Shown: positions 3,615 through 35,203 of the stretch, piece by piece
How positions within the stretch are numbered: position 1 is the stretch's first letter
Layout: each line of letters begins with the position of its first letter
IMG/VR virus record: IMGVR_UViG_3300035042_000139
DNA from: a virus
Lineage: Duplodnaviria; Heunggongvirae; Uroviricota; Caudoviricetes
Direction: 5' to 3' (one strand)
DNA length: 64,000 bases
Made by a program: the position numbers and the translations under genes
Notes under the pieces: generated by a model
What the model saw: the letters and a program-made list of their open reading frames with translations, nothing else
What the model was told of the DNA's origin: nothing
Databases searched by the model: none

Positions 3615-4583
3615 ATGAGTGATAAAAAACAGCGACCACTAAAGAGGGTTGTTATAAAAGAAGAACTAGTTGAGCTTACAGGAGAGTACTTAGCAGCATT
3701 AGTTTTAAATCAGTTTATATACTGGTCAGAAAGAGTTAATGATTATGACAAAATGTTAAGTGAAGAATATTCAAGGTTAGAAAATGAAGGAATAAAAACT
3801 GATGAAGAAGTTCAGTTTAAGAATGGGTGGATATATAAAAGTGCTGAAGAAATGAATGAAGAATTAATGGTAGATATGACTGAACCTACTATAAGAAAAA
3901 GAATGACTAAGTTAGTAGAAAAAAAATGGCTACAAAGAAGGAGAAATCCAAAGTACAAGCAGGATAGAACATATCAGTACAGAGTAGATATTATACAGAT
4001 ACAAAAAGACTTACTTAAGCTTGGTTATAACTTAGATAAATATCCTTCAATAATTCAAAAGGTTCCTTATCCCCGAGATAACGCCAAAGAAAATAAAAAC
4101 GAATGCAAAGAAAATGATTTTGTTTCAAACACGAATAATTTTGGTTCAAACATAAATAAAAACGAAACATTACCAGAGAGTACTACAGAGACTACTACAA
4201 ATTCTAATAATAATAACAAAAAGCCGGGAGATAAAAATTCAGAACTGCTTGTGGATAACTTCCAAAAAGCATTCGGCAAAAAACCAAACGATTTTCAAAA
4301 GCAAAAGCTCTCAGAGTTTATTGATAAAGGTGGCGATTTTGAACTATTGCTCAAAACAATAGAGTACTGTGCACTAGGTGGCCACAACCAGACATTCTTT
4401 TTCAGGAGACTTGATATCCTGATGGACAAAGGTATTTATAAAAAAGACGACCTTAAAAAGATTTTTAGAAAAGACAATCTTAAAACAGCTGCAGGAGATT
4501 CTAATAAAACAGAGAAGAATGAAGTAGAGGATAATTATAAATGGAAGGATTTCTTTATAGATTTCGACAAGTATAAGGAGTGA
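3615..4583 (+). CDS. DnaD-domain replication initiation / replisome organiser protein.
   Basis: C-terminal 'KQKLSEFIDKGGDFELLLKTIEYCALGGHNQTFFFRRLDILMDKGIYKKDDLKK' matches the DnaD-like domain pattern (IxYA...G.....YxxxILxxWxxxGIxT). N-terminus is winged-helix-like. A low-complexity N/T-rich linker separates them. Confidence 0.55.
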   Translation: MSDKKQRPLKRVVIKEELVELTGEYLAALVLNQFIYWSERVNDYDKMLSEEYSRLENEGIKTDEEVQFKNGWIYKSAEEMNEELMVDMTEPTIRKRMTKLVEKKWLQRRRNPKYKQDRTYQYRVDIIQIQKDLLKLGYNLDKYPSIIQKVPYPRDNAKENKNECKENDFVSNTNNFGSNINKNETLPESTTETTTNSNNNNKKPGDKNSELLVDNFQKAFGKKPNDFQKQKLSEFIDKGGDFELLLKTIEYCALGGHNQTFFFRRLDILMDKGIYKKDDLKKIFRKDNLKTAAGDSNKTEKNEVEDNYKWKDFFIDFDKYKE

Positions 4584-4589
4584 TTAAAG

Positions 4590-4823
4590 ATGATTCCTGT
4601 TGACAAGGATATTTATAATGAGCTCATACAGGCCAGACAAATCTATGTTAAAGATTTAGGCTTTGAGGATTTTGCTAATACTTTATTCAATGATTTGGAC
4701 TATCTTATAAACAAACTTGCCTTTATAGGTTTTAGGAGGGCATACACCTGGGCCACCATGAATAAGTCTGAGTTTGCTCAGGGTATGGCTCAGGGTTTTG
4801 CGATAAGAAACGAAAGATTATGA
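4590..4823 (+). CDS. Hypothetical protein.
   Basis: ORF with RBS AAGGAG at 4576-4581. Confidence 0.4.
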   Translation: MIPVDKDIYNELIQARQIYVKDLGFEDFANTLFNDLDYLINKLAFIGFRRAYTWATMNKSEFAQGMAQGFAIRNERL

Positions 4824-4864
4824 TGCAAATAATTGTATTTTAATTTAGTTTATAATACTAAACC

Positions 4865-4893
4865 TTGAAAAATGGATAGGGGTATGGTATACT
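4865..4893 (+). promoter_or_regulatory. Sigma70-type promoter with extended -10.
   Basis: TTGAAA (4865-4870), 17 nt spacer, TATACT (4888-4893), preceded by TGg. The shared 'TTGAAAAATGG...ATGGTATAcT' core also occurs at 36951-36979 on the - strand. Confidence 0.45.
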
Positions 4894-5102
4894 TATTATA
4901 GGTTAAAAAGAGAGGGGGATTTACCATAAAGTTATATAAATGGCAGGAGGAAGTTTTTGCTGATAAGTCATCAGTTATAGAAGTTAAAGGAGCAAGAAGA
5001 ACAGGCAAAACAGAGCTTGGAAATCATTTATCTTTAAGAGATGAGGTTGTTGTAAGATACTTTAAATACAGTAGACAAAAGGATGAATGTTTTAAATCAA
5101 CT

Positions 5103-5534
5103 ATGCACAATATACTCTCACTTAAGAATTTTATAAGCTATACTGCTAAAGATAGAAGAATAATTCGATACTGGATTTTAAATGATAATGATGAAGTTGA
5201 AAGCAGAAAAATATTCTTTTTATCTGGAACATCAGATTATGCTATCAGAAATATATATGAAAGAACAAATGGTTATACTAAAAAAATCGATACTTTAATT
5301 TTTGAAGACATGGAAGTTTCTGATAAAAAAGTAGAAAAAATAAGAGAGCATTTTATTAAAGACTTTAATTTAAAGCAGATATTCATTTTTAACTCAACTC
5401 CTTTAAAAAGGAAACAATATGTGATAGACTTATTACAGGTCAACAAAAGTGCAGCAGAAGACATGAAAAAACTAATGTCTGAAGAAAGGTATAAAGAAGA
5501 TATAAAACTTATTGGTTACGAGGAGGTAGATTAA
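5103..5534 (+). CDS. Hypothetical protein.
   Basis: 143-aa ORF. No recognisable motif. Confidence 0.4.
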   Translation: MHNILSLKNFISYTAKDRRIIRYWILNDNDEVESRKIFFLSGTSDYAIRNIYERTNGYTKKIDTLIFEDMEVSDKKVEKIREHFIKDFNLKQIFIFNSTPLKRKQYVIDLLQVNKSAAEDMKKLMSEERYKEDIKLIGYEEVD

Positions 5535-5708
5535 TTGCCTACATATAATTACAGGTGTAAAGATTGTGGCCACGAGTTTTCTGAGATTCAGAAAATAAGT
5601 GATGAGCCTTTTAAAGAATGTCCAAAATGTGAAGGTGAGCTTGAAAAGATTTTTAAAAAACCACCCGGCATTCAATTTAAAGGTCCAGGATTTTATAGTA
5701 ATACTTAA
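5535..5708 (+). CDS. FmdB-family zinc-ribbon regulatory protein (TTG start). Not in the ORF track.
   Basis: RBS AGGAGG at 5521-5526 then TTG 5535. MPTYNYRCKDCGHEF...CPKCEG: CxxC-x17-CxxC with the typical FmdB N-terminus 'Y.Y.C..CGH.FE'. Confidence 0.6.
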   Translation: MPTYNYRCKDCGHEFSEIQKISDEPFKECPKCEGELEKIFKKPPGIQFKGPGFYSNT

Positions 5709-5771
5709 CTTTTTTTTAGGCTTAATGGTTTAGTTAAGTTTAATAAACTAATCAATTGAAAGGATGATTTT

Positions 5772-5909
5772 ATGTGGGGCCCGATGTTTATATTTTTTAG
5801 CCTTCTGGCTATTATGGTTTTTGCAGTTTCTATCTTTTCTATCTTTCCGAAGGTAGGAAATGCAATTAAAAAATATTTTGACTGGGAAGATGAAGAAGAG
5901 AATAAATAA
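5772..5909 (+). CDS. Small membrane protein (45 aa).
   Basis: ATG after RBS AAAGGATG. Single hydrophobic helix 'MFIFFSLLAIMVFAVSIFSIF' and an acidic C-terminus. Confidence 0.35.
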   Translation: MWGPMFIFFSLLAIMVFAVSIFSIFPKVGNAIKKYFDWEDEEENK

Positions 5910-5933
5910 TAAAAAACTAGGGGGATTTATTTT

Positions 5934-7034
5934 ATGACAGGAAAAGACAAAGGTATGATGGGGCTTATAGCATTTTTGGTGATTGTGTTTATTGCAGGTG
6001 TAGGATTTTTTATGGTAACGGATAATATCGAGCCAGGGTTTGTTGGCTATGTTTATGACCGTACCATTGACCCTGATAATCCAGATGAAAATAGTGTACC
6101 TGTATTAGAGGGTACATCAGTAATCAACCAGCCAAGGTATGGACTTGTTTGGCTTAATCCTTTTACTCAAGAAATGTATATCTCACCAACAACTATTATC
6201 AGCAGAAACTGGACTAAAAATGAGCAGGAAGGCTCAAAACAGGATGACTCAATTGAGGCAGGAACAATTGAGGGCAAGAATGTAATTACTGATATTTATA
6301 TGTCAGTTCAGCCAGAAAATGTAGCTAAGATTATTAAAAATTGGGGCGTCAAAAAAGACTTCGAGACTATTGTAGATGATGAGCTTTACGGAGTTATGAA
6401 GGGCGAGGTTAAAAAGGTAACAAGAAAAACTTCAGTCTATAACTTCCAGGCCAAGGTTAGTGAAATGCAGACAGAAATCTTTGAGAACTTAAAAGAAACA
6501 ATGTCTGATAAGTATGGCATTAGATTAATCAGGTTTGAATTTGGAAACATATTAGTGCCAGAGGAAATTCAGGCTGAGATTAACCGAAAAACATCAGCTA
6601 TTAATGAGGTAGAACTTGCTGAGCTGGATGCTAAAAGACAGGCTGAGGTTAACGCTAAAGAGGTAGCAAGACAGGAAGCTGAGTCAAAGCAGGAGCTTAT
6701 TCAAAGACAGGCAGCTGCTGATGCTGATGCTTATGAGAAGGAAAGAAAAGCAGATGCAGAAGCTTACTCTATTGAAAGAAAGGCAGAGGCTATTAAGATG
6801 GCAGCTAACAATAAATATGAAGCAGCTATTTTAGAAAAGAAAGCAGAGTTAGAAAAACAGCAGGCTTATACAGATGTGTATTTTGCTAACAGAGAGCTTG
6901 ACCTGCAGACTAAAGCTGTTACAAGCATCAATGATAAGATGAAGATTATTGTTACTCCAGAAGACGGCAGTGGTATAGGTTCAATGCCCGGTATCATGGG
7001 TATCTTAAATGAAATCAGCGGGGCGATGGAATAA
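5934..7034 (+). CDS. SPFH / Band-7 (flotillin/HflK-like) membrane-scaffold protein.
   Basis: N-terminal TM helix (GLIAFLVIVFIAGVGFFMV), SPFH-like core, and a long Ala/Glu/Lys-rich coiled coil ('EVELAELDAKRQAEVNAKEVARQEAESKQELIQRQAAADADAYEKERKADAEAY...') typical of flotillin and HflK/C. Confidence 0.65.
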   Translation: MTGKDKGMMGLIAFLVIVFIAGVGFFMVTDNIEPGFVGYVYDRTIDPDNPDENSVPVLEGTSVINQPRYGLVWLNPFTQEMYISPTTIISRNWTKNEQEGSKQDDSIEAGTIEGKNVITDIYMSVQPENVAKIIKNWGVKKDFETIVDDELYGVMKGEVKKVTRKTSVYNFQAKVSEMQTEIFENLKETMSDKYGIRLIRFEFGNILVPEEIQAEINRKTSAINEVELAELDAKRQAEVNAKEVARQEAESKQELIQRQAAADADAYEKERKADAEAYSIERKAEAIKMAANNKYEAAILEKKAELEKQQAYTDVYFANRELDLQTKAVTSINDKMKIIVTPEDGSGIGSMPGIMGILNEISGAME

Positions 7035-7201
7035 TGATGTTTGATGAGGATTTTATAGGACTAATGATTGGAGGATTTGGATTTTTCCTGATTGCAGTAT
7101 CATTTTTACTGGCAGACATTCCTTTGTCGGGCAAGTTGTTACTTGAGGGGTTTTTATTCTTGGTAGCTTGGCTTATTTGGGAGATGAAAAATTCATTGTA
7201 A
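7034..7201 (+). CDS. Small two-helix membrane protein translationally coupled to the SPFH gene (possible NfeD-like partner).
   Basis: ATG overlaps the SPFH stop (TAATG). MMFDEDFIGLMIGGFGFFLIAVSFLLADIPLSGKLLLEGFLFLVAWLIWEMKNSL. Confidence 0.4.
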   Translation: MMFDEDFIGLMIGGFGFFLIAVSFLLADIPLSGKLLLEGFLFLVAWLIWEMKNSL

Positions 7202-7232
7202 AAAAAGAGAGGCGGGTAATTCCGCCTCTTAA
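7201..7232. terminator. Bidirectional rho-independent terminator.
   Basis: A6 (7201-7206), then AGAGGCGG (7208-7215), loop GTAATT, CCGCCTCT (7222-7229). Read on the - strand it gives a U-run directly after the stop of the 7229..7525 gene. Confidence 0.75.
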
Positions 7233-7525
7233 TCTAAATCTTCTTCGACATATTTAGAGTGTGACTGGCCTAGTTTCTGGTATTTAGAGTAATATTTTTT
7301 AAGGATATAGCGGTATCCTTCTTCGGTTAACTCATTAATGTTACGCTTAATACCAATCTTTCTAAGCCTTAATGATAACATTTTAATCTCATAATACAGG
7401 TCGGGGTCAATTGTTCCACTAAATTCTATTCTTTCTATTTTTTTCTTTTTCGACATATACCTCACCTCTGTATTAATTGTATCTCGTACAATTTTGATTG
7501 TCAATAATACAATAAAAGAATGCAC
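7229..7525 (-). CDS. Hypothetical protein. Lone - strand gene within the + strand module.
   Basis: 98-aa basic ORF flanked by a terminator. Unknown function. Confidence 0.4.
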   Translation of the reverse strand: MHSFIVLLTIKIVRDTINTEVRYMSKKKKIERIEFSGTIDPDLYYEIKMLSLRLRKIGIKRNINELTEEGYRYILKKYYSKYQKLGQSHSKYVEEDLD

Positions 7526-7642
7526 CTTCTTATATAGGTTTACTTAAACAACAAAAGTATAGGCAGTAAATTTTTTAATCTTACATTATAGAAAATAAAA
7601 AAGCAAATTTAATTTTAAAAAGGATTGGAAGTGGTTTATTTA

Positions 7643-8338
7643 ATGACATGTGTAGTTGGATTTAAAGCAGAAAAAGAAAACAAAATATATATTGGCGCTG
7701 ACACTGTTGGCTCTACAAATTACACAAAAGAAAACAGGAAAGACGGCAAGGTATTTGCTTCAGGTGATTTCACAATAGGTTTTGCGGGTTCTTATAGAAT
7801 GGGACAGGTATTGCAGTATAAATTAGATGTTCCGGCACAGAAAGACTCTCAGACAGACCACGGCTATATGGCCACGACATTTATCGATGCAGTTAGGAGA
7901 CTTTTTGATAAAAATGGTATTATGGGTGTCGACCAGGACAACAAGGAATTTGGCGGTTTGTTTTTAGTAGCATATAAAAATGAGCTCTATAGAATCGACT
8001 ATGACTTTCAGGTTGGTATCGGAAGTGAAGACTTTACCGCTATAGGTTCCGGTGGAGAGGTAGCTTTGGGGGCTATGTACGCTTTAAATAGTTTTGATGA
8101 AGTTGGGCCTACCGAAAAGGTAACGATGTCTATTCTGGCAGCTATGGACCTCACACCCTTTGTTGGTGGAGATATAGAGATTGTAACTCATACCTATGTT
8201 GAAGAAAAAGAGATTGATAAGGTATACAAGAAACTTTCTGATATGACAGATGAGGACCTAATGGAGATTCAGGAATATCTTGATATGACTATTTGCGATA
8301 ATGACATGATGGCTCTCGGAGTTGATGAGTGTGCGTAG
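7643..8338 (+). CDS. HslV/20S-proteasome-beta-like Ntn-hydrolase peptidase (T1 family).
   Basis: With start at ATG 7643 the N-terminus is M-TCVVGFKAEKENKIYIGADTVGS, i.e. nucleophile Thr1 after Met removal, matching HslV/proteasome beta 'TT.VG.K..DGVVLAAD'. A later 'FTAIGSGGEVALGAMYAL' matches the GSGG motif. Confidence 0.55.
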   Translation: MTCVVGFKAEKENKIYIGADTVGSTNYTKENRKDGKVFASGDFTIGFAGSYRMGQVLQYKLDVPAQKDSQTDHGYMATTFIDAVRRLFDKNGIMGVDQDNKEFGGLFLVAYKNELYRIDYDFQVGIGSEDFTAIGSGGEVALGAMYALNSFDEVGPTEKVTMSILAAMDLTPFVGGDIEIVTHTYVEEKEIDKVYKKLSDMTDEDLMEIQEYLDMTICDNDMMALGVDECA

Positions 8339-9974
8339 CAAGAAGACAAAATATATATTTGTTACTGGTGGAGTGGTTTCGGGCTTAGGTAAAGGCCTTA
8401 CTGCTGCTTCACTTGGTTTTTTGCTTAAAGCTAGAGGGTTAAATATTAAGGTTCAGAAATTTGACCCCTATATCAATGTTGACCCCGGGACAATGAACCC
8501 TATAGAACATGGAGAGGTTTTTGTAACATCAGATGGGGCTGAAACTGATTTAGACCTCGGTCATTATGAAAGGTTTATCAACATTGAGCTTTCTGGTAAA
8601 AACTCAGTTTCTACAGGTCAAATATATCAGACTGTTTTAGATAATGAAAGAGAAGGAAAGTATTTAGGAAAAACAATACAGGTTATACCGCACATAACAG
8701 ACGAGATTAAAAGAAGAATGACATTACCAGAAGATAAAAATACAGATATTATTATTATTGAAGTTGGAGGAACTGTAGGAGATATTGAAAGCTATCCATT
8801 TATAGAAGCTGTAAGGCAGTTAAGACATGACTTGGGCTTTGATAATACATTCCATATTCACTGCACTTTAATACCTTATATGCATAAGGTCGGTGAATAC
8901 AAGTCAAAGCCAACACAGCAGAGTTTAAAAGAACTTAGGAGCTTGGGTGTTCAGCCAGATGCCGTTGTTGGCAGAATAAAAGGTCAGATGCCGGAAGATA
9001 TAAAAGATAAAATTTCACTCTTTGGAAATATAGATAAAAGATTAATATTTGAATCTGTAGATGTTGAGCACATATACGATATTCCTCTGAAATATGAAGA
9101 GCAGTTTATGGCTGAAAGGGTTATGAAAGGTATAGGTTTTGATTTGTCTGTACCAGATATGACTCCCGGAGTTAAGTTTAAGGATATGGATATGTGGGAA
9201 ACTATGGTCAAAAATTTAAAAGAAGAAAAAGAAAGTGTAAATATCGCTGTTGTTGGTAAATACACAGAGCTTGAAGATGCTTATCTTAGTATCAAAGAAG
9301 CTTTATATCATGCAGGTGTCGCAAACAATCTTGATGTAGAAATTGCATTTATAGATGCTGAATACTTAGAAGATTTAAGCTGTGATGAAGCAGTAAAAAT
9401 AACATTAAAAGAATATGATGGAATACTAGTTCCTGGTGGATTCGGCAAAAGAGGTATTGAGGGTAAGATAAAAGCAGCTAGGTATGCTAGAAAAAACAAT
9501 GTCCCTTACTTTGGTATCTGCCTAGGAATGCAGGTTGCAGCTATTGAGTATGCCAGAAACAAGCTTGGCCTAGAAGATGCCAACAGCTTAGAGTTTGACA
9601 GTGAAACTAAAAACCCTGTAATCACTCTCATGAATGAGCAGAAAGAAATTAATAATAAAGGTGGAACAATGAGGCTTGGCTCTTATGACTGCACTCTTGA
9701 TACTAATAGCAAGGCTTACGGAGCTTATAAAGAAGAGCATATTAGTGAAAGGCACAGACATCGCTTTGAATTTAATAATTATTTTACTGAGTTTTTTGAA
9801 AAAGGAATGATAGTTACTGGAATAAACCCGGACTTAAATCTTGCTGAAATAATTGAAATAGAGGACCACCCGTGGTTTGTTGGTGTGCAGTTTCACCCTG
9901 AGTTTAAGTCAAGGCCTTTAAGACCACATCCGTTATTTGTTGACTTTATAAAAAATGCTTCTACGAGGAGATGA
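8322..9974 (+). CDS. pyrG: CTP synthase (glutamine-hydrolysing).
   Basis: 'KYIFVTGGVVSGLGKG' N-terminal P-loop, 'DPYINVDPGTMNP', and a GATase domain with catalytic Cys in 'YFGICLGMQ' and 'HRHRFEFN'. Start overlaps the end of the HslV-like gene by about 17 nt. Confidence 0.95.
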   Translation: MMSVRSKKTKYIFVTGGVVSGLGKGLTAASLGFLLKARGLNIKVQKFDPYINVDPGTMNPIEHGEVFVTSDGAETDLDLGHYERFINIELSGKNSVSTGQIYQTVLDNEREGKYLGKTIQVIPHITDEIKRRMTLPEDKNTDIIIIEVGGTVGDIESYPFIEAVRQLRHDLGFDNTFHIHCTLIPYMHKVGEYKSKPTQQSLKELRSLGVQPDAVVGRIKGQMPEDIKDKISLFGNIDKRLIFESVDVEHIYDIPLKYEEQFMAERVMKGIGFDLSVPDMTPGVKFKDMDMWETMVKNLKEEKESVNIAVVGKYTELEDAYLSIKEALYHAGVANNLDVEIAFIDAEYLEDLSCDEAVKITLKEYDGILVPGGFGKRGIEGKIKAARYARKNNVPYFGICLGMQVAAIEYARNKLGLEDANSLEFDSETKNPVITLMNEQKEINNKGGTMRLGSYDCTLDTNSKAYGAYKEEHISERHRHRFEFNNYFTEFFEKGMIVTGINPDLNLAEIIEIEDHPWFVGVQFHPEFKSRPLRPHPLFVDFIKNASTRR

Positions 9975-10423
9975 ACACAATCAGTAATGAATTCACAGGA
10001 AAAAAAGTAAAAGCAGCAGAGATGAGAATGTTTATAGATAATATTGAATTCCCGGCAGAAGTTATGACCATGACATCTCAGGTAGCAAAAGACCAGATTG
10101 AGTGGTATGACAGTATATCTAAGGATAGGTATTCTGTCGAATGTGAAATAAATACAGACGAAACAAGCCTTGATGACTTGTATGAGGCAATAAATTCACT
10201 GCCTGAAATGTCTTATCATTATGTAATTGTTTTTAATAAAGAGGGTTTTGAAGAATTTAAAGAAACAATGCCTGTTGAGTTGAAAGAAAACGCAGATAAG
10301 ATTAGTTCTATATTTGGGATGAAAGTTAGGGTAATTGCAGGACTTGAAGAAAAGGTAGCAATTTACAAAATTCCTCTTGGCTCTGAAGGAATTGAAGGGG
10401 TGTTAGACTTATGGAATTTTTAA
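9971..10423 (+). CDS. Hypothetical protein.
   Basis: 150-aa ORF overlapping the pyrG stop. Confidence 0.4.
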   Translation: MNTISNEFTGKKVKAAEMRMFIDNIEFPAEVMTMTSQVAKDQIEWYDSISKDRYSVECEINTDETSLDDLYEAINSLPEMSYHYVIVFNKEGFEEFKETMPVELKENADKISSIFGMKVRVIAGLEEKVAIYKIPLGSEGIEGVLDLWNF

Positions 10424-16578: not shown

Positions 16579-16998
16579 ATGAGAAGGGTAAATGCAGAAA
16601 CTATAAAAAAGAGGATGATGACAACAATGAGTAAGGAGCTTCTATTTTCTGTAACTAAAAACGATTTAGAAATTGAGACATTCCGCTCTGGTGGCCCGGG
16701 CGGACAAAACCAAAACTCACGAGAAACTGGTGTCAGAATTAGACATAAAGAGTCAGGGGCTGTGGCCGAGTCAAGAAACCACAGGACTCAGGCTAAGAAT
16801 AAAAAGGCTGCACTTGAAAGACTTGTAAAGACAGATGAATTTAAAAAATGGCATAAGCTTAAAACAAGTTATGCTCTAAAGGGTGTTGATGACTATAAAA
16901 AACAAATAGAAAAAGAAGTTGATGCATGGATGAGTGATAGGAATTTAAAAATAGAAAGTTTTAATGAAGATACTAAGCAATGGGAGGAATTAAATTAA
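16579..16998 (+). CDS. RF-1 domain (GGQ) peptidyl-tRNA hydrolase, ArfB/ICT1-like ribosome-rescue factor family.
   Basis: 'FRSGGPGGQNQNSRETGVRIRHKESG' is the canonical GGQ motif and context. Size of about 125-139 aa equals ArfB. Likely start at ATG 16618 or 16630 (MMTTMSKE...). A Cys-rich micro-ORF lies at 16500..16634 in another frame. Confidence 0.65.
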   Translation: MRRVNAETIKKRMMTTMSKELLFSVTKNDLEIETFRSGGPGGQNQNSRETGVRIRHKESGAVAESRNHRTQAKNKKAALERLVKTDEFKKWHKLKTSYALKGVDDYKKQIEKEVDAWMSDRNLKIESFNEDTKQWEELN

Positions 16999-21521: not shown

Positions 21522-22115
21522 TTAGCTGTTGTATCTTATTACTGCATTGACTACATCGTTCATCATTAACTTTAAGTAGTCATCGTTATTTAGTTTCTTT
21601 TCTTCTTCTATATTTGTAATAAAACCCATCTCTATCAAGACTGCTGGCATATGAGTGTGTTTTAATACGTATAAGTTCTTTCTTTCTTTAAGGCCTCTAT
21701 CACGAGGATTAAGGTCCCTTATTACTTCTTCTTGTATTAATCCTGCAAGCTTTTTACCTCCTGTACTGGTAGGATAATGAAGTGTTTCAAAGCCACTAGC
21801 ACTCTCTGCAGCTGCTGCATTAGCATGGATTGAAATAAATAAATCTGCCTTTGCATTGTTTGCTATATTGCATCTTTCACTAAGCCTTACATATTCGTCT
21901 TTATCCCTAATCATTACTATTTCAAACCCTGTTTTTAGTTCGAACAAACTTTTAAGCATTTTTGCAGCTTTTAAGTTCTTTTCGCTCTCTTCTGTGTAGA
22001 TTTCATCTTTATAAATATCATCATCATGTTTTTTATCTTCAGGGTCAACAGCCCCCCCGTCTTTTCCTCCATGTCCTGCCGATATTGCAATTATTAAGTT
22101 TTCTTTATATGGCAT
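21522..22115 (-). CDS. N-acetylmuramoyl-L-alanine amidase (Amidase_3), endolysin.
   Basis: 'IAISAGHGGKDGGA', 'EKNLKAAKML', 'VMIRDKDEYV...RCNIANNAKADLFISIHANA', 'SGFET'. Confidence 0.75.
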   Translation of the reverse strand: MPYKENLIIAISAGHGGKDGGAVDPEDKKHDDDIYKDEIYTEESEKNLKAAKMLKSLFELKTGFEIVMIRDKDEYVRLSERCNIANNAKADLFISIHANAAAAESASGFETLHYPTSTGGKKLAGLIQEEVIRDLNPRDRGLKERKNLYVLKHTHMPAVLIEMGFITNIEEEKKLNNDDYLKLMMNDVVNAVIRYNS

Positions 22116-22174: not shown

Positions 22175-22408
22175 TTAAAGTTTATTTTTTTTATTCTCAT
22201 AAGTAAATTTAATATCGAATGGTTCTCCTTTTAGCTTACTTATTTCTGCTGCAAGTACATGAACTGCCTCTATTAATTCTTCTTTTGTAATGTAGTCTAG
22301 GTCGTTTGCTAGCTCAGCGTTTTCATCTGTTAATTTTTCATAACCTTTTGAAATAACCAGCCTATCTCCATTATCTAAAACATTATATTTAGCCATCATA
22401 CTCACCAT
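22175..22408 (-). CDS. Small acidic hypothetical protein immediately downstream of (and overlapping) radical-SAM paralog 1.
   Basis: 77 aa with a 20-nt overlap with the upstream gene. Confidence 0.35.
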   Translation of the reverse strand: MVSMMAKYNVLDNGDRLVISKGYEKLTDENAELANDLDYITKEELIEAVHVLAAEISKLKGEPFDIKFTYENKKNKL

Positions 22409-23292
22409 TTTCTATTTTTTTTAAATGATTATCAAAATGCTCTATTATAGAATCATCTTTTTTATATCTTATTTTGTTGCACCGCTTACACATATCGGGG
22501 TATTCCGAGACATCTTTTCTTAATTTATCTCTAAACCTATTTGCTTTTTTGGAATAAAATATTTCATAGACTGTATTTTTAAAAACATTCCCAAAAGACA
22601 TATCTTCAAATTCCTCTAGTTCTGTTCGTATATGGCAACAGGGATTAACCTCCCCCAAATAGTTAATTGATATATTTATAAATGGTTCATAGCATTTAAC
22701 ACTTCTGTTATCTCTATTATTTTTGTATTTTACCTTTCTCTTTTTATTTGATTCTTTATCCTCATAAAATATATCTTCAGTTATTATACCTGCCCTGTCC
22801 TCTATTTCTTTATTTTCTGGCCAATTATAAATAACTATAACTTTTGTTGCATCTTTATGGGTTGCTAATATTTTTGACTTACACTCAATAACATCAAGAA
22901 TACCACAGCCAGAATCCATTAATTTATTTTTCCAGTAATTTATACCCTTCATATCATAATCCATAATATGAAGCCTGTTAAGATTTAAACCATCTAAATT
23001 ATTATAATTTATAAAATCTCCATTTGTTGATATGTCAATCCTTACATTATCTAAAATATCTCTTGCTTGATTAACTCTTTTTTTGAGAATCTCAATATTT
23101 ATCATTGGCTCTGAATAACCATTTAATGTTAATATTTTATTAGGCTGATTAAAGCCTAATTCTTTTAATTCATTTAATATTTCTAAATATTTATTTTCTG
23201 AAAGTTCTTTATAAAAACTTCTATCTACATATTTGTTTGTGCACCACTCACAAGAGCGATTGCACTGACTAAAAATTTCAATTTCAACCCTC
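22389..23292 (-). CDS. Radical SAM / SPASM-like domain protein (paralog 1). N-terminal region lacks a canonical start codon, so this is either a non-ATG start or a pseudogene.
   Basis: ORF track starts at Met 23105, but the same frame stays open upstream to a TAG at about 23296 and encodes 'VEIEIFSQCNRSCEWCTNKY' (CX3CX2C). C-terminus has the 'CYEP...NPCCHIR...FGN....EI...C.RCNK' SPASM-like cluster. Start coordinate uncertain. Confidence 0.5.
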
Positions 23293-23323
23293 TTTATATT
23301 TGATAAAATTTTAAACTACCCCC

Positions 23324-24196
23324 TTAAACAATATTCCCGTTTACTTTTTTCGCGTGTGTTCTTCCCTCTCTATCTTTGTTGCAGTACTTGCATATCTCAG
23401 GCATAGTTTCTACAGTAGAAAACTTGTTGTACAAATCAAAAACAAACTTAGAATTATATATTTCTGGAAGAGTTTTTTCTTTTATATTTCCAAGAATAAA
23501 TCTTTTATGCTTATCATGGTCGCTTCTCATATGACAGCAAGGCATTACATTCCCGTTGTAGTCTACATATATTGACAAAGAAGGTTCACTGCATACATAA
23601 TCTCTTTTTTCTTTTTTTCCTCTCCATAAAAGTGGCTTATCTTCATTATATATAAATTCATCATCTAAAATTCCACCTCTATCTTCAAGTAGAGCATGTT
23701 TTGGCCAGTCAACTTTATATATTAATTTGTCAATATTTTTGCTTTTAGCATGTATCGTCTTTGTGTCTTCTTTAATTTCAATTATAGAGAACCCTAAATC
23801 TTTAACTCTTTTTTTGCACTTATCCATTCCTTCCATATCATAATCCATAATATTTAACCTATCTATAATTAGATTTTCTAATGATTTCTCATTAACAAAA
23901 TCTCCATTTGTTTTTACAACAACTCTTGCGTTTGGAAATGTTTTATTAATTTCCCGAGTCCGTTTTTTTAAAAGTTCAGGATTTAAAAATGGCTCATGAT
24001 ATCTTCCTATAACTATTTGCACAAATACATTCTGGCCAAAACCATCTTCTCCAAGTTCTTTTAATATTTTTGTGAAATGTTCATCGCTCATTTCTTCATA
24101 AAAAGTTCTATCTATATCCTTATTAGGACACCACGAACATTTTCTGTTGCATTGACTATGGAGCTCTAATTCTAAATATTTCATTCCAGAAATCAT
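23324..24196 (-). CDS. Radical SAM / SPASM-like domain protein (paralog 2).
   Basis: 'ELELHSQCNRKCSWCPN' (CX3CX2C), 'KTNGDF', 'LNIMDYDMEG', C-terminal 'CSEP...MPCCHMR...LGNI...C.YCNK'. Confidence 0.65.
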   Translation of the reverse strand: MISGMKYLELELHSQCNRKCSWCPNKDIDRTFYEEMSDEHFTKILKELGEDGFGQNVFVQIVIGRYHEPFLNPELLKKRTREINKTFPNARVVVKTNGDFVNEKSLENLIIDRLNIMDYDMEGMDKCKKRVKDLGFSIIEIKEDTKTIHAKSKNIDKLIYKVDWPKHALLEDRGGILDDEFIYNEDKPLLWRGKKEKRDYVCSEPSLSIYVDYNGNVMPCCHMRSDHDKHKRFILGNIKEKTLPEIYNSKFVFDLYNKFSTVETMPEICKYCNKDREGRTHAKKVNGNIV

Positions 24197-33933: not shown

Positions 33934-34074
33934 ATGGAACGAACACAAGTCTCTTTACCTAAATATCTTAGAGATAAACTAGATGAAGAAGGAAACAAAA
34001 AAGGCATAGGCATTTCAGAAATGGTTCGCTATATTTTATTTCAATACTATGAAGAAAGTGATAACAATGAGTAA
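33934..34074 (+). CDS. Small ribbon-helix-helix-like protein (46 aa) inside the IS element.
   Basis: RBS GAGGTGA 33922-33928. MERTQVSLPKYLRDKLDEEGNKKGIGISEMVRYILFQYYEE... has a beta-strand plus two helices of CopG/RHH type. Overlaps the tnpB start. Confidence 0.35.
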   Translation: MERTQVSLPKYLRDKLDEEGNKKGIGISEMVRYILFQYYEESDNNE

Positions 34075-35203
34075 ATCACATATCACACTACACCACATTA
34101 AATTATTTGAACCTACAAATATTAAACGTAATGAACTAAAAAAGCTTTCTCGTAACTGGAACAAAGCTATTCGTTCAGCCCTCAAAATAATTAAACACTG
34201 GGGGCTTACTGCTTACACTAAATCACATAAGCATGTATATAGAGTTGTTAAGAATAATTACAACCTCCCTTCACAGGTAGCTATTGAAGCTAATCGTAAA
34301 GCTATGGAATCTTATAAGTCTTGTCATAAAAAGTTTAGAGATAACGTTAAGTTTAACTATCAAGTACCTGTTGATTTAGTTAAGAATAAAAGTTTTAAAC
34401 TTATAAGAAAAGATAACGGTACTAATATTATAAAGATAAGCATTGAGCCTTATAACAATATCTACGTACCTATCTCTTTAAGCAACTACCACTTAAATTA
34501 TATTAATAATGATAGGTACGAGATTAAAACAGCTGAGCTATATAAACAAGATGGTGAATGGTATCTTAATTTTATACTAAGATACGAAGTGAAAGGAAAA
34601 GAAACAGACACTCATCTTGGTGTTGACCTTGGTATTATTAATCTAGCTACGTTTAGTGTAGTAGACAGCAGTGAAAATATTTTGCATACTGAACACCTAT
34701 CAGGTAAAGAGTTAAGGTTTAAACGTATGAGATATAAAAGTAAACGTAAGCGTAAAGCTTTTAAGTCTGATAGTAAGAATACTTCACTGATTAAAGAAAA
34801 CAGAATTACTAAAGAAACTAACTGGCTTATAACTAATAGAATTATTGAGATAGCTAAAGAATATAATTCTACTATTGTATTTGAAAACCTTAAGAATATT
34901 AGAAAGAATATTACTAACGATAACAATCTAAACAACTATGAGAAAAATAGTTGGGCTTACTATCAATTAAAACAGTTTGTAAAACATAAAGCTAATCTTA
35001 ATAACTTACCTGTTGAAGAAGTTAATCCTTACAAAACATCTAAGATATGCCACGTATGTGGACAAGAAGGCATAAGAGAAACACAAAACTTGTTTGAATG
35101 TACTAATGGTCACACTTTTAATGCTGATACTAATGCCAGTATAAATATAGCTAAACTTGCTATGGGTATTGAGATAGAAAATCCTTTTGTCGATGTAGCA
35201 TAG
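34049..35203 (+). CDS. tnpB: TnpB (IS605 OrfB / IS1341-type RNA-guided RuvC-like nuclease).
   Basis: RuvC-I 'HLGVDLGIINLA', RuvC-II 'TIVFENLKNI', zinc finger 'CHVCGQ...CTNGH', RuvC-III 'NADTNASINIAK'. Likely start at ATG 34067 (MSKSHITL). Confidence 0.8.
   Translation: MKKVITMSKSHITLHHIKLFEPTNIKRNELKKLSRNWNKAIRSALKIIKHWGLTAYTKSHKHVYRVVKNNYNLPSQVAIEANRKAMESYKSCHKKFRDNVKFNYQVPVDLVKNKSFKLIRKDNGTNIIKISIEPYNNIYVPISLSNYHLNYINNDRYEIKTAELYKQDGEWYLNFILRYEVKGKETDTHLGVDLGIINLATFSVVDSSENILHTEHLSGKELRFKRMRYKSKRKRKAFKSDSKNTSLIKENRITKETNWLITNRIIEIAKEYNSTIVFENLKNIRKNITNDNNLNNYEKNSWAYYQLKQFVKHKANLNNLPVEEVNPYKTSKICHVCGQEGIRETQNLFECTNGHTFNADTNASINIAKLAMGIEIENPFVDVA

Follow-up and report, generated by a model that had tools for sequence, protein, structure and literature searches.

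What does a bacteriophage do with an SPFH protein, and which of the small membrane proteins encoded beside it belong with it? These questions are raised by positions 5772-7201 of the IMG/VR virus record IMGVR_UViG_3300035042_000139 (Caudoviricetes), analysed here as one stretch of 64,000 nt (the window). Three plus-strand open reading frames (ORFs), singled out by an earlier note made from the letters alone and all of them found, encode a 45-aa peptide with one transmembrane (TM) segment, a 366-aa SPFH/Band 7 protein and a 55-aa protein with two hydrophobic spans. The central protein is a genuine but divergent SPFH protein, and the conserved unit consists of two genes, the upstream peptide and SPFH, rather than the three-gene module that had been proposed. 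The locus is phage-encoded, as had been claimed: the window has genes for tail and virion proteins and for an endolysin, and its relatives are on IMG/VR contigs that reach 203 kb (the close relative L005, 203,584 bp).

The SPFH protein and its small neighbours

The earlier assignment of the 366-aa protein to SPFH/Band 7 was borne out by Pfam Band_7 (PF01145; residues 70-236, 42.9 bits against a cutoff of 23.6), with further matches to Band_7_1 (27.2 bits; cutoff, 24) and to phrog_200, labelled 'lipoprotein' (residues 5-295, E=1.1e-23, 85 bits). An AlphaFold2 (AF2) monomer model built from a 28-sequence alignment (predicted local distance difference test [pLDDT], 74.7; predicted template modelling score [pTM], 0.44) arranged the protein as a TM helix (residues 3-28), an alpha/beta core (69-207), a helix (210-310), a second helix (314-332) and a C-terminal segment. 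The long A/E/K-rich coiled coil noted earlier is recognisable in the helical region after the core (residues 210-332; 21% A, 17% E, 11% K), of which 210-310 was modelled as one helix. Using Foldseek against the PDB, matches at probability 1.0 were obtained to prohibitin (8rrh), erlin (9o9u), HflK/C (7vhq), stomatin (9z7u), QmcA (8z5g) and flotillin (9l3g), with flotillin ranking below prohibitin, erlin, HflK/C and stomatin. The matches to cage-forming SPFH subunits were full-length at 13-18% identity, and SPFH proteins of phages and giant viruses were matched as well. The sole match of a PDB sequence-profile search was QmcA (E=0.004), an NCBIfam scan (E<=0.1) returned no HflK/HflC model and only a weak low-complexity match to TolA, and a Pfam scan (E<=1) returned no Flot domain.

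A word-indexed search recovered 79 homologous clusters (41-93% identity), all of metagenome or metagenome-assembled genome (MAG) bin origin, with conservation across the full length that includes a C-terminal IIxT..GxGxG motif; the segment bearing this motif would be compatible with the cap strand of a cage. An exhaustive search of 1.84 billion representatives, which gives no gene context and served only to classify N-termini, returned 193 at E<=1e-3, three at E<=1e-30 and one full-length representative at 50% identity, and by such sequence counts the window SPFH family is narrow. Among GenBank phages, a nucleotide search with window positions 5000-8400 had no match and tblastn with the window SPFH protein matched only two Ruegeria phages (24% identity). 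Codon changes between the SPFH gene and that of L005 are synonymous in 100 cases and non-synonymous in 27, a sign of purifying selection.

Synteny was determined for the 50 related loci with enough upstream DNA. A single-TM ORF of 34-70 aa was located directly upstream of the SPFH gene in all of them (50/50), compared to 4.7% (19/404) for small single-TM ORFs upstream of other ORFs of >=120 aa in the same loci, and the arrangement is therefore not due to chance. The peptide ORFs ended between -29 and about +170 nt of the SPFH start, within +31 nt at all loci except L047, and one (L012) has a non-ATG start. The pairing holds down to 40% SPFH identity and was kept while the neighbouring genes differed by lineage (ribonucleotide reductase [RNR], dUTPase, ligase, NAD synthesis, integrase). 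The peptides share a common design, consisting of a very short N-terminus (MPI[KR] in most loci, M(G)WG in the window clade), ~17-20 hydrophobic residues, an amphipathic K-rich helix (EIYKYLKKNFKK; in the window, AIKKYFDW) and often an acidic tail. The tail of the window peptide has a hydrophobic moment of 0.70 compared to 0.38 +/- 0.12 in shuffles, and the tail moment exceeded that of at least 97% of shuffles for 7 of the 11 peptides tested. The window peptide (MWGPMFIFFSLLAIMVFAVSIFSIFPKVGNAIKKYFDWEDEEENK) is 51% identical to its L001 counterpart, and a protein identical to it is called as a gene on 10 contigs. It has no match in Pfam, NCBIfam or PHROGs, and neither it nor the 55-aa protein matches a holin family (Pfam, PHROGs); homology searches with the two returned identical or near-identical copies only, using a word-based method that misses diverged TM peptides. 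The earlier link between the SPFH gene and small membrane proteins stands, but the conserved partner is the upstream peptide and not the overlapping 55-aa protein.

The features of the module and its borders are as follows.

5758-5764, plus strand: Shine-Dalgarno-like GAAAGGA, 7 nt 5' of the ATG of the 45-aa gene (read from the sequence)
5772-5909, plus strand: upstream peptide gene, 45 aa, one TM (ORF list); the uncharged N-terminus MWGPM precedes the TM
5787-5837, within the peptide gene: TM, residues 6-22, span FIFFSLLAIMVFAVSIF; followed by an amphipathic basic helix, PKVGNAIKKYFDW, and the acidic tail EDEEENK
5920-5925, plus strand: Shine-Dalgarno-like GGGGGA, 8 nt 5' of the SPFH ATG (read from the sequence)
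5934-7034, plus strand: SPFH/Band 7 gene, 366 aa (ORF list, Pfam, PHROGs, AF2), with the conserved SPFH start motif EPGFVGYVYDR
5961-6017, within the SPFH gene: signal-anchor TM, residues 10-28, preceded by a K-rich N-terminal stub
6138-6554, within the SPFH gene: alpha/beta core, residues 69-207
6561-6929, within the SPFH gene: long helix (210-310) and second helix (314-332)
6930-7031, within the SPFH gene: conserved C-terminal segment, beginning KIIVTPEDGSGIG
7034-7201, plus strand: 55-aa ORF, two hydrophobic spans (ORF list)
7208-7229, no strand given: GC-rich hairpin AGAGGCGG-gtaatt-CCGCCTCT (terminator scan and sequence)

The peptide and SPFH genes are in the same frame with two stop codons between them. 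As had been noted earlier, the 55-aa ATG overlaps the SPFH stop, the TAA (7032-7034) sharing one base with the ATG in TAATG (7032-7036). The hairpin separates the module from a convergent minus-strand gene (7525-7229); with a T-run after it, it makes a good candidate terminator for the minus strand, and it is possibly a bidirectional stop that would also end the module.

The 55-aa protein is a two-TM hairpin with the loop D-I-P-L-S-G-K-L, and its distribution suggests that the gene is probably a lineage-specific accessory. Its ORF is present in the lineage with 93% SPFH identity and, as a 51-aa homologue, in L001/L002, and it is absent from L047 (SPFH 70%), L048 (50%) and all loci at 41-49%, which confines it to the two closest clades. 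The homologue is 39% identical over 33 aa, with D-x-P-L-S-x-K-L in common, and L001/L002 (SPFH 70% identical) keep the frame, length and loop of the ORF, with the caveat that they are the one independent clade beyond near-identical copies. Pfam gave only a sub-threshold match of the 55-aa protein to Sec20 (E=0.76), with no match in NCBIfam or PHROGs. The 55-aa ORF is 98.8% identical to L005 at the nucleotide level, for which selection or an RNA element was considered and rejected. A comparison of window positions 4100-10000 to L005 2160-8060 revealed mosaic identity, with blocks of ~100% (4600-4900, 7000-8100) among blocks of 63-90%, suggesting recent recombination between co-circulating relatives; the 55-aa ORF lies inside such a recently exchanged block, and its identity is therefore uninformative on selection.

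With a genome GC of 30-36%, which favours F/I/L-rich chance ORFs, it is conceivable that one or both small ORFs are chance hydrophobic ORFs in T-rich, AT-rich DNA and that SPFH stands alone, the more so for the 55-aa ORF with its single independent homologue and its exchanged block. For the 45-aa ORF, this is opposed by the synteny and its background, the conserved design and motifs, the Shine-Dalgarno-like sequence and annotated analogues in cultured phages, and for the 55-aa ORF by the frame, length and DxPLSxKL loop kept at 70% SPFH identity and by the TAATG coupling signal. A chance origin is rated as very improbable.

Predicted topology and the pair in other phages

On which side of the membrane the SPFH domain resides was approached through the charges flanking the anchor TM in 34 distinct family members. 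The N-flank held a mean of 2.6 K/R compared to 0.2 in the 15 residues after the TM, which had a net charge of -0.9, and the anchor was uncleaved in all 34 members. The window protein has no Cys in or after the TM, and so no lipobox signal peptide. A lipobox Cys a few residues before the xEPGxVG motif was identified in at least 43 of the 150 nearest representatives and in all sampled homologues from phages of Gram-negative hosts, and in an hhalign alignment the P1-like lipobox Cys falls at the end of the window SPFH TM. As lipoprotein signal peptides export whatever comes after them, the charge bias and the lipobox homologues together would place the SPFH domain of this branch outside the cytoplasmic membrane. 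There is good support for a predicted type II protein (N-in, C-out), which is the orientation of HflK/C and the opposite of flotillin and QmcA; this predicted topology, together with the Pfam result for Flot, argues against the flotillin-like character that the protein had first been given.

The window peptide has an uncharged N-flank and three K in its C-flank, and is therefore predicted to be N-out, C-in. One or more extra TMs are fused to the SPFH N-terminus in Arthrobacter phage Zucker, Bacillus phage Edson and 8 of the 150 nearest representatives, with several of the fused forms keeping an internal lipobox, and the loop between the two TMs of Zucker (net charge +3) fits a cytoplasmic loop. 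Gene fusion is a classic sign of physical partnership, and the fused forms thus lend good support to a predicted physical partnership of peptide and SPFH protein. Several representatives (P0128, P0140, P0145, P0157, P0191, P0212) have two extra N-terminal TMs and then an internal lipobox-like signal before the SPFH start, and look like fusions of a partner gene with a lipoprotein-type SPFH gene.

A typical phage SPFH protein, used as the tblastn query, matched at least 748 GenBank phage records, many of them from strictly virulent phages. In 14 distinct cultured or GenBank phage loci inspected for small membrane-protein genes, 12 possessed one near the SPFH gene and the other two were the fused forms of Zucker and Edson. 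The small ORF was directly upstream, often overlapping the SPFH start, in Kayvirus 812h1, Bacillus B13, Burkholderia vB_E264, Pseudomonas FBPa29, Caulobacter RBC11, Lak-B5, Ruegeria V10, Stx2_95 and a P1-like phage; it was two genes upstream in two Vequintavirinae, and in Enterococcus ZJGS2 the partner overlaps the SPFH gene downstream. The small ORFs of Stx2_95 (2459-2647 in L069) and Burkholderia vB_E264 (598-747 in L065) are uncalled in GenBank. The phage SPFH proteins themselves are often misannotated, as 'transposase' (Ruegeria phages V10 and DSS3P8) or as 'serine protease' (Stx2_95, P1-like Ro157c2YLVW, Caulobacter RBC11).

Two groups illustrate how far the resemblance extends. Members of the PHROG 200 family, which includes P1-like, Stx2, Vi01-like, Vequintavirinae, Bruynoghevirus and Lak phages, share the xEPGxVG start motif and a small membrane-protein gene abutting the SPFH gene, but those of Gram-negative hosts, ~270-296 aa in length, are lipoproteins whose lipobox signal is cleavable and whose partner usually has two TMs, whereas the window protein has an uncleaved anchor, 366 aa, a helix of ~120 residues and a one-TM partner, at <30% identity. 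In the temperate Bacillus phage B13 (36.9 kb), a dUTPase gene, a gene for a 46-aa TM peptide with an amphipathic K-rich tail and an SPFH gene (gp44-gp45) follow the order of L003 and L006-L010 exactly, but the SPFH protein is 263 aa with a short coiled coil and its pairwise similarity to the window protein is not significant.

A proposed membrane scaffold and its candidate roles

The best explanation for the pair, though one given only an even chance of being correct, is a phage-encoded two-component membrane scaffold composed of the 366-aa SPFH protein and its 45-aa partner. The SPFH protein would keep its short K-rich N-terminus in the cytoplasm, followed by one TM anchor, with the core, the ~100-residue helix and the C-terminal segment on the outer face of the host cytoplasmic membrane. 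By analogy to cage-forming relatives, the long helices and C-terminal strand would most likely join copies of the protein in a closed ring or cage fencing a membrane patch. The 45-aa peptide would be the obligate partner, inserted N-out/C-in with its amphipathic basic helix and acidic tail in the cytoplasm, and its TM and the SPFH anchor helix probably pack together like the arms of a hairpin. The 55-aa protein, with its two TMs, would be a lineage-specific add-on made by translational coupling, and the module would be deployed early in infection.

The timing is suggested by the genomic setting. The module is part of a plus-strand early block (RecJ, a DnaD-like loader, an HslV-like peptidase, CTP synthase, a metallophosphatase and SNase), and a minus-strand block holds the Amidase_3 endolysin and the tail and virion proteins. 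The neighbours of the SPFH gene in relatives are RNR, dUTPase, ligase and NAD genes, and this position in an early replication and nucleotide-metabolism block indicates that early deployment is probable. The SPFH gene is beside xis-int in temperate relatives and in an Stx phage, as it likewise is in the Pseudomonas satellite AH14b (PMC4936722). In PhiSH19 the SPFH gene adjoins an annotated superinfection-exclusion gene. Such positions are typical of early envelope-modifying or exclusion genes, and because of this, the role ranked first for such a scaffold is that it insulates or occupies the membrane early (superinfection exclusion, or a block to incoming DNA or to lysis from without); it is a speculative choice and less likely than not. 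A connection to known phage defence, raised in the earlier note, found no support in a PADLOC-DB v2 scan of the three module proteins (E<=0.1; no defence-system match) or in a full-text literature search, which located no SPFH anti-phage system.

Relatives of ~140-147 kb have an excisionase-like helix-turn-helix (HTH) ORF after the SPFH gene (L003 6068-6244; L010 5028-5219), in L003 followed by a tyrosine integrase on the opposite strand (6289-7425), suggesting that some of these large gut phages are probably temperate. The MAG bins suggest a Clostridia host, and one related locus (L038) lies inside a 543-kb Oscillospiraceae MAG contig.

The only such pair discussed in print, mbpV-mbpS of Kayvirus (phage K/812/MSA6), points to another role. 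MbpV was noted to 'resemble holins' and MbpS, the SPFH protein, was proposed to aid the Sec export of Tgl, functions that were only suggested (Glowacka-Rutkowska et al. 2020, PMC7150955). A 2026 paper holds that the presence of the SPFH domain in phage genomes 'remains unclear', and other papers merely note the domain. The Kayvirus pair, from a large phage of Gram-positive hosts, resembles the window pair in that directly upstream of SPFH comes a small protein whose N-terminus holds a TM and whose tail is charged; the start and stop of the two genes overlap in a compact operon, and MbpS is 24% identical to the window SPFH protein over 245 aa (pairwise E=3e-5). MbpV is longer (102 aa compared to 45 aa), however, and MbpS is shorter (263 aa) with a much shorter helical region. 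The module may thus control the timing of lysis, with the peptide as a holin- or antiholin-like protein that the SPFH cage confines (a 'caged holin'), or with the cage organising the export of lytic enzymes. The Kayvirus genes are between the endolysin gene lysK and the lytic transglycosylase gene tgl (PMC7150955), the window peptide has the holin-like traits of a TM span and a charged C-terminal tail, and no obvious holin gene adjoins the Amidase_3 endolysin of the window (21522-22115). Yet 14 kb separate the window module from that endolysin, which is encoded on the other strand, and the module is surrounded by replication and nucleotide-metabolism genes; nearly all relatives as well as B13, ZJGS2, Zucker and V22 share a non-lysis setting, the peptide matches no holin family in Pfam or PHROGs and many of the partner peptides are only 34 aa. 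A role in lysis timing is ranked second and considered unlikely.

A third reading starts from the likeness to E. coli HflK/HflC, which have the orientation predicted here, the order SPFH, CC1, CC2 and C-terminal segment, and a fold that matches over the full length. The exported cage could mimic HflK/C and capture or displace a host membrane protease (FtsH, HtpX-like) or quality control, which would stabilise phage proteins or bias the lysis-lysogeny decision. Full-length structural matches to HflK/C-FtsH complexes agree with this, annotators of other phages have proposed such a role, and the SPFH gene of the Stx phage is in the early-left region near xis-int, the region in which lambda carries the gene for its FtsH inhibitor cIII. 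The window protein is not orthologous to HflK or HflC by NCBIfam (no match at E<=0.1), however, and it is apparently homo-oligomeric, with a mini-TM partner in place of the second SPFH paralogue. The structural similarity is no better than to prohibitin, erlin or stomatin (13-18% identity), many carriers are strictly virulent and have no lysogeny decision to make, and no protease gene is consistently linked, the HslV-like gene being a neighbour in the window lineage only. This reading is ranked third and is judged improbable.

The earlier note had likened the locus to bacterial operons of SPFH and NfeD-like proteins, which would make the SPFH protein flotillin-like and cytoplasm-facing and the 55-aa protein its NfeD-like partner. 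Such operons (QmcA-YbbJ, FloA/FloT-NfeD, PH1511-PH1510) have in common with the window a co-transcribed SPFH gene and membrane-partner gene and the SPFH fold; the arrangement here is operon-like with a translationally coupled small membrane protein, and the fold also matches QmcA (QmcA-YbbJ complex) and flotillin. The comparison fails at the partner and at the membrane. Neither small protein has an NfeD or other Pfam match, and with 45 and 55 aa both are too short after their TM segments for an NfeD OB-fold; nor does the window partner have a protease domain. Most of the family lacks the 55-aa gene, there is no Flot match, and the SPFH domain is predicted, from the charge bias and the lipoprotein homologues, to be external to the cell membrane, whereas those of QmcA and the flotillins are on its other side. 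This explanation is hardly credible.

Several points weigh against the two-component scaffold itself. Cage formation and stoichiometry are by analogy only, and the AF2 monomer is of only medium confidence, with low scores for residues 29-100 and 300-366. The predicted topology is drawn from the positive-inside rule and the lipoboxes of homologues, the charge bias is ambiguous in the main-clade peptides (MPI[KR]...), and the fused forms may not be homologous to the window peptide. To our knowledge, a cage ~15 nm tall outside the membrane of a thick-walled cell is without precedent. The Kayvirus pair is found in a lysis region, unlike the window pair among replication and nucleotide-metabolism genes, and its position speaks for a rival, the lysis reading. 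The evidence does not discriminate among the candidate roles, and the literature search returned no functional study connecting a phage SPFH protein to anti-phage activity or superinfection exclusion.

For the window, the outcome is mostly a corrected annotation. Compared by sequence, its module would be a divergent addition to a known but uncharacterised class of phage genes; what is new is how general the mini-partner is, together with the fused forms and the predicted exported topology. The annotation of phage SPFH genes goes back to 2006, and at least 748 GenBank genomes have one, including those of therapeutic Kayviruses, P1-like phages and Stx phages, but the genes are known from annotation alone. 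Three regularities emerge: the SPFH gene is almost always accompanied by, and sometimes fused to, a tiny membrane-protein gene; in this branch, the SPFH domain is predicted to be exported and not cytoplasmic; and the module is usually among early genes or beside an integrase. If these hold, the pair would offer, with only two proteins, a simple way to study how a client is selected and confined by an SPFH cage, and tractable phages (K, B13, P1) would be open to exclusion, lysis-timing and protease phenotypes. A bolder reading, which is doubtful, is that mini membrane protein and exported SPFH form a single ancient and so far unrecognised phage device of two components, shared by hundreds of phages (P1-like, Stx, Kayvirus, gut jumbo and Lak megaphages), in which the cage, on the outer face of the membrane, surrounds or gates the small protein paired with it; that protein might be a pore-former kept caged, or a plug that stops incoming phage DNA. 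If true, this device would be a general way for phages to partition the host membrane.

Other genes of the window

Two genes flanking the module were tested as further members and rejected, as each is a neighbour in the window lineage only. Downstream, the HslV/proteasome-like peptidase gene (7625-8338; phrog_1040, E=2e-25) overlaps the start of a CTP synthase gene (8322-9974; full-length PyrG, 387 bits), and the two, both unusual auxiliary genes for a phage, adjoin the SPFH module in the same lineage only. Just upstream is an FmdB-family CxxC...CxxC zinc ribbon of 57 aa (5535-5708; TIGR02605, 73 bits), which is conserved at this position in the closest lineage only. Near the SPFH module of L056, a 103-aa protein combines an HTH_OrfB_IS605 domain with an FmdB zinc ribbon.

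The Amidase_3 endolysin gene (21522-22115, minus strand), with no recognisable holin gene adjoining it, has as neighbours genes for a 77-aa soluble protein, a NeuB-like protein, an alpha-amylase-like protein and two SPASM/radical-SAM-like proteins (22389-24196). A transposase gene on the plus strand (34049-35203; phrog_506, E=1e-34) within the minus-strand structural block suggests that a mobile element inserted in the phage genome. A 139-aa protein (16579-16998) with an RF-1 domain (peptidyl-tRNA hydrolase, ArfB-like; 67 bits) may be a phage ribosome-rescue or translation factor. ARAGORN identified no tRNA gene in the 64-kb window of a phage of ~200 kb. The GC skew changes sign near 17-18 kb, where the gene orientation flips.

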